DNA of 64,000 nucleotides from a virus (lineage: Duplodnaviria; Caudoviricetes): positions 381 to 64,380 of IMG/VR virus record IMGVR_UViG_3300042375_000420; one strand, written 5' to 3'. Below the pieces are notes generated by a model. That model made no database searches. It was given only the letters and a program-made list of their open reading frames with translations, and was not told the DNA's origin. A program made the translations under genes and the position numbers. Below, in pieces: positions 5,182 through 10,066 of the stretch. The stretch's first letter is position 1. Each line of letters begins with the position of its first letter.

Positions 5182-5868
5182 ATGAGTGAAGTACAAGCTC
5201 CAGTTATTACTGAAAGAGAAATAACTATTTATGCTACCAGAGGTGGCCAAATGAAGAAAATCATGACTTCTGCAACTACTTGGGGAGAATTACAACCCCT
5301 TGTAAGAAGTGAAGGATTTGATTTGTCTTCTTTATTAGCAGCTGAAAACATTAACAAGTCTGACTTGGTAAATGATTTAGCTGTATTACCAGCAACTGCT
5401 TTCAGATTGTTTTTGAGACCAAAGCAAACTAAGTCAGGTGCTTTGGACAGAAAAGAATGTTTTGCAGCTATCAAAGCTCACTTAGCTACTAATCCTGGAG
5501 ATAAGTCTAAGTTTACCATTGATGGTAAAAATGTAACTCAGTTATCAACTTCTGTAGTACAGGATTTGGTAGCTAAGTACATTAATGCTTCTGCTCCAGC
5601 TACAAGAGTTGTGAATGAAGTTGTAGCTGAAAAAGTTTCTGAAAAGAAAGTTGTAGCTACTCTTGAGCCTATTGACAATTCTGATTTATCAGATGTTGAG
5701 AAAGTGCAAGAAGCTATTGAGTTAATTTCTTCTTTAGAAGGGTATGACTCTTATTACAAAGCTAACAAGCATTTGAATAACCTTCTTGCTGAAGTATCTC
5801 CTCAAACTGAAAAGATTGAGTCTGAAGAAGATGCTGTCAGAAGAGAAGCCAGAGAAATGGGTTACTAG
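5182..5868 (+). CDS. Ubiquitin-like (beta-grasp) protein precursor with C-terminal extension
   Basis: Residues ~11-86 show a beta-beta-alpha-beta pattern (EITIYAT / KKIMTSATTWGELQPLV / FRLFLRP) ending in KSG (Gly86); first gene of an E2-JAB-E1 cluster. Confidence 0.65.
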   Translation: MSEVQAPVITEREITIYATRGGQMKKIMTSATTWGELQPLVRSEGFDLSSLLAAENINKSDLVNDLAVLPATAFRLFLRPKQTKSGALDRKECFAAIKAHLATNPGDKSKFTIDGKNVTQLSTSVVQDLVAKYINASAPATRVVNEVVAEKVSEKKVVATLEPIDNSDLSDVEKVQEAIELISSLEGYDSYYKANKHLNNLLAEVSPQTEKIESEEDAVRREAREMGY

Positions 5869-5877
5869 TATTAATTT

Positions 5878-5913
5878 AAGGGCTTATGTAATGTAAGCCC
5901 TTTAATTTTTTTT
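5878..5913 (+). terminator. Rho-independent terminator/attenuator after the Ubl gene
   Basis: AAGGGCTTA-tgtaatg-TAAGCCCTT stem-loop followed closely by a T-run. Confidence 0.7.
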
Positions 5914-5916
5914 ATT

Positions 5917-7125: not shown

Positions 7126-8197
7126 ACTAATCTCTAAAGTAGAGTGGTCAGGAGCTCTATTTTATACTACTGAAGGTAGTATTGAAAAACCTGAAACATT
7201 CAAAATTACTTTGAAAACAATCCTTCCATTAGATATGGGTTCTCAAGCTTATACTGAGTATAATCTTGATGAAAGATTTATGGATTTTGTTGAAGAAGAC
7301 TTTGAAGAAAGATGTGCTTGGAAGTTAGGTCACATTCATAGTCATAATAGTATGGCAGTGTTCTTTTCAGGTACAGATATGGCTGAGCTTAATGATAATG
7401 CTCCAGCACATAATTTCTACTTATCCTTAATTGTAAACAATGCTATGGATTTTCTAGCTAAAGTTGCTTTTATTGGAGAAGCTAAGAAAGATATTAAACA
7501 GGTTCCTTATACAGCTAAAAATGTACAAGGCCATGATTACATCATTGAGAAACAAGACTTTGAAGTTAACACTCAAAAGTTATTTATCTTTGATTGTGAT
7601 ATTTATAGTGACTTACAAGAACTTTCAGTTACTGAACAGTTTATAAATCAAGTTGCTAAAATCATGGAGCCTAAACCTGTGAAGACTTTTCCCAGACAAG
7701 TTACTACTAACCAAACTAAAGGTTGGAGCAGACAAGATCAAAGAGAAATTGATGCTTGGAATGAAGGGTTTAAGAAAACTCCAACTCTTTTTGATGATTG
7801 GGGTCTTCCAACTGATAAAGAGATTGAAGACTTAGCAGAATACGACTTAAAGGCACAATCTATTTACAACTTTGCAAAAGCTTTGTTTAGTTATACTACT
7901 TCTCCTTTAGATGAAGAAGAAACTGTTGAAGATGTTCTTGAAGACTTAGCAGAATATGACTTAACACCCCAAGAAGTAGCAAAGTCAGTAATCAATGATT
8001 ATGCTAAGACTTTTGCTCAACATTTTCCAAAGGCTTCTGCTGCTGATTTTGTACAATACACTCATGAAACTGTGGACTTACTAGAGGACATAAGTATGTT
8101 GTATCCTGAAATCAAACTGACTATTAGAACTATTACATCAATGATTGATAAATTTATTTCACATGAGACAAGCAAGGGACACAAGTCAGCAAAGTAG
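7004..8197 (+). CDS. JAB/MPN+ (JAMM) metalloprotease with acidic C-terminal domain
   Basis: E47 (VEWSG) plus an exact JAMM motif H112-x-H114-x7-S122-x2-D125 (HSHNSMAVFFSGTD); alternative start at 7034. Confidence 0.9.
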   Translation: MSLENLSQESMRKQLSRVQLKSTIPVVMPIEVLHQIQYLCKLISKVEWSGALFYTTEGSIEKPETFKITLKTILPLDMGSQAYTEYNLDERFMDFVEEDFEERCAWKLGHIHSHNSMAVFFSGTDMAELNDNAPAHNFYLSLIVNNAMDFLAKVAFIGEAKKDIKQVPYTAKNVQGHDYIIEKQDFEVNTQKLFIFDCDIYSDLQELSVTEQFINQVAKIMEPKPVKTFPRQVTTNQTKGWSRQDQREIDAWNEGFKKTPTLFDDWGLPTDKEIEDLAEYDLKAQSIYNFAKALFSYTTSPLDEEETVEDVLEDLAEYDLTPQEVAKSVINDYAKTFAQHFPKASAADFVQYTHETVDLLEDISMLYPEIKLTIRTITSMIDKFISHETSKGHKSAK

Positions 8198-8864
8198 GTT
8201 TAAAGATGCACCATGGTTTCCTAAGAACAATGAAATTTGTTTAGTAGGTGGAGCTGGTGGTATAGGCTCTTGGTTATGTTTTTTCTTAACTAAGATAGGT
8301 TTTAAAGTCAATATCTATGATTTTGACACTGTTGAAGACCACAATTTAGGTGGTCAATTATTTCAACAAGCTGATATTGGTAGTGCTAAAGTAGTGGCAA
8401 TTCAAAGAATAGTACAGAATTTCTGTGGGAACAGACTTTCTACTTTCAATGAAAGGATTACTAGTACTACTCCTCATCATTACTATAGTTTTTCTGCTTT
8501 TGACAATATGGAAGCTAGAAGAACTTTGTTTATGAATTGGAAACAATCTTGGGGAAGTTGCCCTGATGGAGTTACAGCCATATTCATAGATGGTAGATTA
8601 GAGATTGAGCAATTACAGATATTCTGTGTTACTCCTGAGAATGCTGATAGATATGAAAGAGAACACCTTTTCCATGACAGTGCTGTAGAAGAAGCTCCAT
8701 GTACAATGAAGCAAACTTCTCATACTGCTGCTATGATAGGTTCTCTTATGTCAGCTTTCTTTACCAATCATATTACCAATGTTTATTTGGGTGAGACTCT
8801 CAGAGAAGTCCCATTCTATTATGAGTTTGTAGTTCCTATGAACTTCACACAATCAGAGTTATGA
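8145..8864 (+). CDS. ThiF/MoeB/E1-family activating enzyme
   Basis: GGAGGIGS, YDFDTVEDHNL, GSAKV, AFDNMEAR, FIDGR; candidate catalytic Cys186 (EEAPCTMK); likely start 8163. Confidence 0.9.
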   Translation: MINLFHMRQARDTSQQSRFKDAPWFPKNNEICLVGGAGGIGSWLCFFLTKIGFKVNIYDFDTVEDHNLGGQLFQQADIGSAKVVAIQRIVQNFCGNRLSTFNERITSTTPHHYYSFSAFDNMEARRTLFMNWKQSWGSCPDGVTAIFIDGRLEIEQLQIFCVTPENADRYEREHLFHDSAVEEAPCTMKQTSHTAAMIGSLMSAFFTNHITNVYLGETLREVPFYYEFVVPMNFTQSEL

Positions 8865-10066
8865 AAATACATTTCTCAAGTTTAGGGAATTTTATTCCTG
8901 CTGACTTTAATATGACTTCTGAACATGCCAATGAATTTATTCCTTTAGTCTGTGGACAAAATATGTCAGTTAAAGATGGAATTCAATATTATTCTAAACC
9001 TTCTTTTGAAAAGCACCTTAGAAAACCAAACACTCTTAAGAATATTAAAGATGGTTTTGAGTTAGGTGGGACTACAAGAAGGATTGAAATCAATGGCAGA
9101 GTGTTCTTTATAGCAAAAGGAGTTTTCTTTTCAGAAGCAGGTGTACCTTTAATGGTATGTGCTATGAAAAAGGAAGCTTTCTTAGACCCTTTAGTCTCTA
9201 AGTTCTCTGACTTTAGAGCTGAAAATTTCTCCTACAATAATTACGTTTTATTTTATTCCACTTCTTTTTTCACTGATCCTGGTCTAACTCCTTTAAATAG
9301 GAGGCTTCAAAAAGAAATATTACAAACTTGCTATGAAAAAGGTATAGAGGTAAGAATGATTACCTCCCTAGAAATAGAGAAGAATACCTTTGCAAGATTA
9401 TTTGAAGTCAAAAAGACAAAGTCTTTGACACAATTAGAAGCCTATATGAATCAAGTATTGCCAAATTTTTTGCACACTCAAGGGGAGGACACCTTTGTAG
9501 AGCAAGAATTTGAGCCAGTAGTGATTCATAGAGAAGAACTTTCCGTAGAAGATGAAGCTCTTTTATTTGACAATGACTCAACCCCTGTTGCAGAACCTGT
9601 AGTACAAGCACCTGTTATACCTAACAGACAACTTACTTTAGAAGAAGTGATAGAAATGGCTGAGTTAGAAGCTGAAGCTGCCCAATTTGATTCTGATTTA
9701 GAATCTTCTGATGATGAAGATTATACTGAAGACTACAATGAAGATTGGGAGAATGATGAGCAAGATGAAGATGAAGAAGAGATACAAAGACATGAGGAAG
9801 CTGCCCATACAGGTTCTGAAAGAAATGTAACTATGTATATGAGTCAAGAAGCAGTAGGAGTATTTCAAGAAGCTCTTAGAGCTGAAGCTAATTCTCAATT
9901 ATCAATGCCTCATCCTGCAGACTCTTTAGTAGAAAGAATGAGACCTTTGCAAGATGCTTATAATGTGCAAATGTTACAAGCACAACAAAGAGGTCAATTA
10001 CAAGCTGAAAGAGAAGCAGTTAGGTCATGGCAATCAGTTATAGAGTTAGTTGATGATACGGAATAG
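8861..10066 (+). CDS. Hypothetical protein, globular N-domain plus long acidic tail
   Basis: ATGA overlap with the E1 stop; D/E-rich stretch around residues 270-310. Confidence 0.6.
   Translation: MKIHFSSLGNFIPADFNMTSEHANEFIPLVCGQNMSVKDGIQYYSKPSFEKHLRKPNTLKNIKDGFELGGTTRRIEINGRVFFIAKGVFFSEAGVPLMVCAMKKEAFLDPLVSKFSDFRAENFSYNNYVLFYSTSFFTDPGLTPLNRRLQKEILQTCYEKGIEVRMITSLEIEKNTFARLFEVKKTKSLTQLEAYMNQVLPNFLHTQGEDTFVEQEFEPVVIHREELSVEDEALLFDNDSTPVAEPVVQAPVIPNRQLTLEEVIEMAELEAEAAQFDSDLESSDDEDYTEDYNEDWENDEQDEDEEEIQRHEEAAHTGSERNVTMYMSQEAVGVFQEALRAEANSQLSMPHPADSLVERMRPLQDAYNVQMLQAQQRGQLQAEREAVRSWQSVIELVDDTE

Follow-up and report, generated by a model that had tools for sequence, protein, structure and literature searches.

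A predicted ubiquitin-like conjugation cassette in the replication module of a crAss-like phage

Bacterial operons that encode a ubiquitin-like protein (Ubl), an E1, an E2 and a JAB protease have been predicted to conjugate Ubls (PMC1779556), and this activity has since been demonstrated for related bacterial operons (PMC11601596). [quoted passage not shown] In this work, we analyze a locus in which similar machinery is carried by a phage and tied to replication genes: five genes (p1–p5) at positions 5182..10066 of a 64,000-nucleotide stretch of DNA from a virus of the Caudoviricetes (positions 381 to 64,380 of IMG/VR record IMGVR_UViG_3300042375_000420; this whole stretch is the window). The gene content of the cassette is that of the bacterial Ubl/E1/E2/JAB operons and is closest to type 6d (Iyer, Burroughs, Aravind 2006; PMC1779556). 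Our favored reading, in which we have moderate confidence, is that the cassette encodes a pathway for the activation, conjugation and processing of a Ubl, with protein conjugation as its end point.

Gene layout and predicted products

The original prediction for this locus, made from the nucleotide sequence, described five co-oriented genes, the last four overlapping; the open reading frame (ORF) listing of the window bears this out:

p1, 5182-5868, + strand: 228 residues, predicted ubiquitin-like protein precursor
p2, 5917-7125, + strand: 402 residues, E2-like protein
p3, 7004-8197, + strand: 397 residues, predicted JAB/JAMM metalloprotease
p4, 8145-8864, + strand: 239 residues with a TTG start, predicted single-domain E1/ThiF-type adenylyltransferase
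p5, 8861-10066, + strand: 401 residues, protein without assigned function

The genes are tightly packed or overlapping, with a gap of 48 nucleotides between p1 and p2 and overlaps of 122, 53 and 4 nucleotides at the p2/p3, p3/p4 and p4/p5 junctions, respectively; through the last of these, p5 is translationally coupled to p4. Residue numbers in p4 are those of the 239-residue TTG version used in the original prediction; the ATG at 8163 is the likelier start because the relatives align from p4 residue seven. Every motif residue that the prediction named in p1–p4 is present and is invariant in the aligned relatives.

Judged from its structure model, p1 starts with a ubiquitin-fold domain that has an invariant glycine, Gly86, where ubiquitin ends. 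The AlphaFold2 model (16 sequences; mean predicted local distance difference test score, pLDDT, 75.3) contains two strands, a helix and further strands (residues 12–80), then helices, a disordered linker (137–160) and more helices; the beta-grasp domain occupies residues ∼12–86 (nucleotides 5215-5439) and is followed by a 142-residue helical extension that includes the linker. In the model, residues 12–85 superpose on residues 1–76 of ubiquitin, which would place Gly86 at approximately the C-terminus of ubiquitin. No Foldseek row reaches E ≤ 0.001 (the best is 1.2e-3); nearly all of the leading rows are UBX, ubiquitin, SUMO and ISG15 domains (probability 1.00, template modeling score to the target 0.61–0.69, root-mean-square deviation 2.4–3 Å over ∼79 residues), and ThiS and MoaD are not among the listed structural matches. 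The fold of the segment 5182-5439 had been set beforehand as a refuting test, and the AlphaFold2 model and Foldseek agree on a beta-grasp. Searches of Pfam, PADLOC and NCBIfam and a profile search of the PDB recognize no family for p1, the PDB rows being at chance level.

The sequence K84-S85-G86 is invariant in 16/16 homologues of p1, down to 27% identity, and in 6/6 members of an alignment that includes gp53 of phage FpV4 and Gp79 of phage crAss001. Directly after Gly86 the homologues diverge in both length and content; eight are shorter than 100 residues, and three of these end 1, 3 and 4 residues past KSG, like Ubl precursors. Because Gly86 lies inside the 228-residue ORF, its exposure needs cleavage.

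A candidate for this cleavage is p3, which is identified from its sequence as a JAMM metalloprotease. The JAMM motif that the prediction had called exact (E47, H112-x-H114, S122 and D125) is invariant in 20/20 homologues, and of the 20 family members, 19 have a match to Pfam Prok-JAB with E ≤ 0.1 (the lowest, 5.2e-6); p3 itself scores below the cut-off (E 0.066, 13.5 bits; cut-off 25). Other matches are weak (PADLOC JAB, 0.011; Rpn11-like in a profile search of the PDB, 0.082). The JAB domain is N-terminal (residues ∼25–160) and is followed by ∼230 residues of unassigned function. The JAB match of several FpV phages is divided into two segments, which flank an ORF annotated as ‘endonuclease’ in at least one record (Fpv20).

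The 122-nucleotide overlap of p2 and p3 (7004-7125) is kept in all close relatives at 122 or 134 nucleotides; long overlaps of the E2-like and JAB genes are also found in FpV4 (125 nucleotides), crAss001 (62 nucleotides) and the more distant locus L028 (71 nucleotides). When 45 sequence pairs are compared over 7004-7125, synonymous changes make up 323 of 667 codon differences in the p3 frame, compared with 90 of 666 for the p2 frame and 126 of 687 for the remaining one; it is therefore the p3 reading that is under selection, and p2 looks overprinted by p3 in its final ∼40 residues (pLDDT <50).

The sequence of p4 shows it to be an adenylyltransferase of the E1 type in which the ATP/Mg site is intact and a cysteine is invariant, in agreement with the earlier assignment to E1/ThiF. 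It matches Pfam ThiF (PF00899) with E 2e-15 and 57 bits (cut-off 28.1), and a profile of its family (17 homologues) detects 48 distinct PDB sequences with E ≤ 1e-3, among them Uba6 (2e-11), Uba5 (2.2e-10), MccB (4.5e-10), SAE2 (6.5e-10), ThiF (3.2e-9), MoeB (6.8e-8), PaaA (1e-7) and BubCD (3.1e-5). The weakest of the 48 is a flavin-dependent monooxygenase (8e-4); all of the others we take to be E1-type adenylation domains. The residues G36xGGxG41, D59, D61, N67, K82, D120, R125 and C186 are invariant in 17/17 homologues, including sequences that are only 25–27% identical, and in the PDB profile alignment the nucleotide-binding glycine loop and the D120/R125 motif align with the corresponding motifs of Uba6. 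Cys186 lies within an EAPCTMK motif; the profile matches end at residue ∼130.

It consists of one domain, and its sequence contains no CxxC pair. It appears to belong to none of the curated E1 subfamilies, since all of its NCBIfam scores are far below the cut-offs (the best, ThiF model PRK08644, 2e-12, 47.2 bits vs 159; TIGR03736 PRTRC_ThiF, 4.9e-11, 42.4 bits vs 144.75) and its PADLOC matches are partial or weak (the CBASS E1-E2 models match residues ∼28–90 only; BilD, E 0.03). In one related viral locus (L017:5835-6985) the p4 homologue is interrupted ∼40 codons in, at the nucleotide-binding glycine loop, by an insert of ∼1.15 kb; judging from its 268-residue ORF with two LAGLIDADG-like motifs, the insert probably represents a group I intron that carries a homing endonuclease.

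The product of the last gene, p5, has a conserved N-terminal domain (residues 1–205), a middle region that is acidic and variable, and an acidic C-terminal tail that is again conserved (11-sequence alignment). Its only library match is a weak one to PHROG 15446 (function unknown); Pfam, NCBIfam, PADLOC and the protein atlas yield no family. The tail, I-E-L-I/V-D-D-T-E after the variable acidic region, presumably resembles the partner-binding tails of single-strand-binding proteins, and p5 may be an accessory or target-choosing factor. The description of the cassette as ‘complete’ was generous, since no E3 was seen and p5 is unexplained.

The E2-like protein and the competing readings

The weakest part of the cassette is p2. 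Its AlphaFold2 model (pLDDT 79.3; predicted template modeling score 0.68) has a long helix (residues 53–74), a four-strand meander (78–139), a loop that carries His155, a short strand (168–172) just before Cys173 and then helices within 179–212, the first at 179–187; modeled in this way, p2 would consist of a UBC/UEV-like domain (∼25–221) and a separate second domain (∼236–387) of unassigned fold. In active E2s the cysteine follows the meander and the histidine precedes the cysteine. The family of p2 contains 2999 cluster representatives (50% identity) at E ≤ 1e-3 and 2426 at ≤1e-10. His155 (nucleotides 6379-6381) and Cys173 (6433-6435), which are spaced by 18 residues, are invariant in 16/16 homologues and in 141/141 diverse representatives that are 18–61% identical; in these 141, which are among the best representatives, only S154, H155, C173, E210, S211 and P216 are invariant. 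A Foldseek search with the model returns nothing at E ≤ 0.001 (the best rows are kinetochore CCAN chains, E 0.03); the fold-match lists are dominated by UEV, E2 and RWD chains. From the model and the alignments, it is probable that p2 contains a UBC/UEV-like domain with an invariant His/Cys pair. The part of the prediction that called p2 E2-like is partly upheld, by this pair and by the fold matches; the lack of an HPN motif and of any match to the E2 sequence profiles tried speaks against it.

Several observations weigh against conjugation as the end point of the pathway. Neither Pfam UQ_con nor Prok-E2 matches any of 16/16 p2 members, and searches of the PDB with profiles of 16 and 141 sequences give chance-level rows only; the classical HPN motif is absent, the motif in its place being S-H-L or, in most members, H-S-H-L; and the top fold matches are the UEV domains of Tsg101 and Vps23 and RWD domains, which are catalytically dead. 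As for the other proteins, p4 is the size of ThiF/MoeB and finds its best NCBIfam matches in ThiF models; the p1 Ubl ends in Ser-Gly, not Gly-Gly; the short p1 homologues may be cut by contig ends; and the cleavage at Gly86 is one that we infer. In further searches with p2, NCBIfam and PADLOC gave no match and the protein atlas gave no usable match for residues 40–235; fused forms of p2 were not found among proteins of 754–2150 residues, which is weak evidence.

The properties of p2 could also be explained if p1, p3 and p4 form a Ubl/E1/JAB trio that is independent of an E2, as the archaeal SAMPs and Urm1 conjugate without an E2; p2 would then be a noncatalytic UEV/RWD-like adaptor or an unrelated His155/Cys173 enzyme (e.g., for metal binding or proteolysis). 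The inactive UBC relatives at the head of its fold matches, the missing HPN motif and the failure of the E2 profiles are all compatible with such a protein, as is H153, a near-invariant histidine two residues before H155 in most members that could mark a metal site. However, UEV and RWD domains lack the cysteine, yet p2 keeps both Cys173 and His155 in 141/141 representatives; the modeled cysteine is located between the beta-meander and the following helices, as in E2s; and active E2s (Ubc8, Ubc13, E2S, Ube2W and UbcH7) follow within 2 Z units of the best fold matches. We consider this explanation unlikely.

Still less likely, in our judgment, is a sulfur-carrier pathway in which p1 acts like ThiS, MoaD or CysO, that is, Gly86 is adenylated by the E1 and converted to a thiocarboxylate and the sulfur is transferred to a nucleotide, a cofactor or a DNA/RNA base made during replication; the JAB protease would only mature the carrier, as Mec+ matures CysO. 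Its appeal lies in p4, a 239-residue single domain like ThiF/MoeB for which the best NCBIfam matches are ThiF models (2e-12), and presumably also in Cys186, which is at about the residue number of the conserved ThiF/MoeB cysteine (by number, not by alignment). Also, the cassette is located among nucleotide-metabolism and replication genes, and Ubl, JAB and E1 operons for sulfur assimilation have been described (PMC1779556).

Four observations oppose the sulfur-carrier pathway. The model of p1 can be superposed on ubiquitin, SUMO and UBX, with ThiS and MoaD missing from the listed rows; p4 is without CxxC pairs; a conserved UBC-fold protein with an invariant Cys and His would be left without a role; and no sulfur-transfer partner was found. 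The prediction had remarked that no thiamine, molybdopterin or tRNA-thiolation genes are nearby, and in agreement with this none of these families, nor rhodanese or cysteine desulfurase, was found among the 48 ORFs scanned in the window; a PP-loop thiolase or a ThiG/MoaE-type partner was also absent from the 48, although the record is ∼68% complete and some such genes could lie outside it.

That p4 is a peptide-modifying E1 like MccB or PaaA, which would modify a peptide or protein at its C-terminus and so yield a small bioactive product with no protein tagging, is very improbable: the p4 profile does match MccB (4.5e-10) and PaaA (1e-7) in the PDB, but these matches cover the shared Rossmann part only and score no better than Uba5, Uba6 and SAE2, the neighboring p1 is a full ubiquitin-fold domain and not a short peptide, and neither a JAB protease nor a UBC-like protein has a place in the MccB and PaaA pathways.

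Returning to conjugation as the end point, we infer the following mechanism from the sequences and models. The Ubl would be made as the p1 precursor and cut after Gly86 by the p3 JAB protease; the p4 E1 would adenylate the freed Gly86 and probably load p1 onto Cys186; the Ubl would then move to Cys173 of p2, which would pass it to lysines of one or more targets picked by the second domain of p2 or by p5; and the JAB protease could also remove the tag. The cassette genes are probably expressed with the replication/recombination module; because they sit in this module, phage replication/recombination proteins or host proteins are the likely targets. The biological role may lie in replication control, host take-over or counter-defense. 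As a more tentative and broader proposal, it is possible that, during genome replication, crAss-like phages and related phages operate a cysteine-based Ubl cascade that they encode themselves and that uses a previously unrecognized, very large E2-like family (the 2999 representatives, for which there is no Pfam model), a Ubl made as a fusion precursor and covalent tagging of replisome, recombination or host proteins.

Distribution and genomic setting

The prediction held that related gene sets may occur in other crAss-like phages, and they do. A scan of viral contigs with p4, followed by assignment of gene content by BLASTP, identified 29 loci. In 22/29 the homologues of p1, p2, p3 and p4 are present in the same order, with identities down to 25–45%; one locus is cut by a contig end, and the other six (L026–L031) hold only JAB and E1 homologues. 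The retention of a four-gene order where the proteins are only 25–45% identical argues that the cassette is more than a chance arrangement. Wherever it recurs, the p1–p4 set is located within the replication module. A homologue of p5 follows the E1 gene in 15/29 loci and in FpV4; it is not found in the more distant loci or in crAss001.

In a phage collection, 80 records have an E1 homologue and 74 have a JAB homologue; these are mostly phages of Flavobacterium psychrophilum (the FpV4 group) and crAss-like phages of Bacteroides. A local profile search finds the counterparts of p1–p4 in FpV4 as gp53–gp50, and the profile scores for crAss001 are 5.8e-15 for Gp79 (p1), 1.1e-16 for Gp78 (p2), 2.7e-46 for Gp77 (p3) and 2.7e-56 for Gp76 (p4). 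In both phages the genes are located in the replication module downstream of the primase (in crAss001, directly after it), and the records name them ‘thiamine biosynthesis protein’, ‘metalloprotease domain containing protein’ (crAss001 Gp77) or hypothetical. A megablast of the cassette against the collection gave no match. Four Xanthomonas phage records and one Erwinia phage record were found by the E1 search and not by the JAB search; in these phages the E1 may have a different context. Searches for p4 outside of phages were negative in their scope: a pattern scan of genome contigs for cellular E1 relatives, made with the p4 alignment, gave 18 pattern matches with none confirmed, and plasmids searched by tblastn yielded nothing at 1e-3.

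Where the homologues are limited to JAB and E1 (six loci; 28–35% and 25–29% identical, respectively), the genes directly upstream are different. The first gene encodes a 79-residue protein with a terminal Q-E-S-G that is extended by a 9-residue tail, and the second encodes a protein of ∼700 residues with an invariant H-P-H ... C motif; downstream are genes for an AAA_24 (Sak4-like) ATPase, a protein like the single-strand-binding proteins and a primase-helicase. The coordinates noted for this lineage are as follows:

L027:1604-3960
L028:3787-6203
L029:890-3379

The layout of this second lineage matches that of the cassette, that is, a small glycine-ended protein, a large Cys/His protein, JAB and E1 in a replication module. 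Profile–profile comparison detects no similarity of the 79-residue and ∼700-residue proteins to p1 and p2, and searches of the PDB and Pfam find nothing beyond a weak TGS (beta-grasp) match (0.021). As a Ubl/E2 pair these proteins are only a lead, based on position and motifs read by eye; the pair hints that such cascades are recurrent in phage replication modules.

The source record (IMG/VR, 64,380 bases, estimated at ∼68% completeness) is nearly all included in the window. DNA near-identical to the cassette region (61–100% of sampled words) is found in 17 lake-water metagenome runs from 17 studies, three of which may be the source; with its nearest DNA in lake-water metagenomes, the phage is a recurrent freshwater phage, not a gut phage. 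The annotation of the neighboring genes bears out the placement of the cassette inside the replication module. Upstream are genes for a helicase-like protein, a Sak4-like annealing protein, a member of an unknown PHROG family, a DNA primase and a protein whose FpV4 counterpart is annotated as a uracil-DNA glycosylase; downstream are a RusA-like resolvase and an exonuclease VIII-like nuclease, with a DNA ligase and a MazG-like pyrophosphatase at a greater distance. On the − strand, an ORF of 4646 residues (25124-39061) has a nearly full-length match to PHROG 16227 (‘virion structural protein’), and the adjoining ORFs of 1907 and 1949 residues are virion-type proteins too. Giant virion proteins on the strand opposite to the replication genes are typical of crAss-like phages.

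Metatranscriptome contigs (RNA libraries from three studies) that are 90–99% alike map on the region, with one run covering 30/30 bins; we do not count these as proof of transcription because RNA libraries can hold DNA and the contigs come from relatives. In crAss001, the replication, recombination and nucleotide-metabolism genes are middle genes that are transcribed from 10–30 min (PMC10136315). By analogy, this timing fits, and does not show, expression of the cassette alongside the replication genes.

Comparison with known systems

Full-text searches of the crAss-related literature found no paper that describes the cassette, with earlier mention in supplementary annotation tables possible; the main texts of a 2023 Crassvirales review and of Yutin et al. 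(2021) do not mention it under the terms sought in each. If the broader proposal made above is true, a virus of bacteria would for the first time be seen to encode a full Ubl cascade. The locus suggests that the very abundant crAss-like phages tag proteins much as eukaryotic cells do; crAss-like phages are the group that dominates the human gut virome, and the cassette analyzed here shows them in lake water as well. If the pathway conjugates, p2 would define a new E2 family, several ‘hypothetical’ and ‘thiamine biosynthesis’ genes of crAss-like phages would acquire a function, and the question would be raised of what a phage gains from protein tagging during replication; it would also provide a data point on the movement of E1/E2/JAB sets between phages, mobile elements and cells. 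Two phages that have the cassette, crAss001 (grown on Bacteroides intestinalis) and FpV4, are cultured and tractable.

With the type 6d operons, the cassette shares the four functions as separate genes together with one extra uncharacterized protein (alpha-helical in 6d), a small E1 not fused to the E2, a conserved glycine that ends the beta-grasp of the Ubl, and a sporadic distribution that includes Bacteroides (PMC1779556). In contrast, the 6d JAB has an N-terminal JAB-N domain (PMC1779556), whereas the phage JAB domain is itself N-terminal and has a long C-terminal extension; the phage Ubl has the 142-residue extension; the carrier is a phage replication module; and p2 has its invariant His 18 residues before the Cys.

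Bil (BilA Ubl, BilB E2, BilC JAB and BilD E1) also consists of separate genes without an E3, and its E2 has been proposed to pick the target by itself (PMC11601596). However, Bil is a bacterial anti-phage defense whereas the cassette is phage-carried. Identity with Bil is not borne out by the profiles tried: PADLOC gives BilD at 0.03 for p4 and nothing for p1–p3, and p4 is one 239-residue domain whereas the Bil E1 has tandem adenylation domains and a cysteine domain. In type II CBASS, Cap2 is an E2-E1 fusion that conjugates the C-terminus of the CD-NTase, not a Ubl, and Cap3 is the JAB; here the E1 and E2-like proteins are encoded by separate genes, the PADLOC matches cover ∼60 residues of p4, and no member of the CD-NTase family was found among the 48 window ORFs, so we reject this identity as well. 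The Bub (6E/DUF6527) system differs in having an E1 and E2 without catalytic cysteines, oxyesters and a DUF6527 serine protease (PMC11601596); identity with Bub is rejected on the invariant C186 of p4 and C173 of p2 and on the absence of a Pfam match to DUF6527 in the five proteins.

ThiF/ThiS and MoeB/MoaD share with the cassette a single-domain E1 of ∼240 residues, a beta-grasp partner that ends in glycine and the best matches to ThiF models; as ThiF or MoeB proper, p4 is rejected on its score (47 bits vs 159), the lack of a CxxC zinc site, the lack of sulfur-transfer partners in the window and the presence of the UBC-like protein. The PRTRC (ParB-related, ThiF-related) systems of plasmids have in common with it the TIGR03736 match of p4 and carriage by mobile elements; they are rejected on the score of that match (42.4 bits vs 144.75), the absence of any PRTRC model for p1, p2, p3 and p5 at E ≤ 0.1 and the negative plasmid tblastn search. 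Finally, TAPI/TAPK of phages lambda and T1 also include a phage Ubl with a terminal glycine followed by a further domain, with a JAB predicted to cut this protein (PMC1779556), but they have no E1 or E2, belong to the tail module and are not predicted to conjugate. The cassette is best filed as a distinctive set: its E1 is minimal and has a single domain, its Ubl is produced as a long precursor, no profile exists for its E2-like family, and its carrier is a phage replication module.

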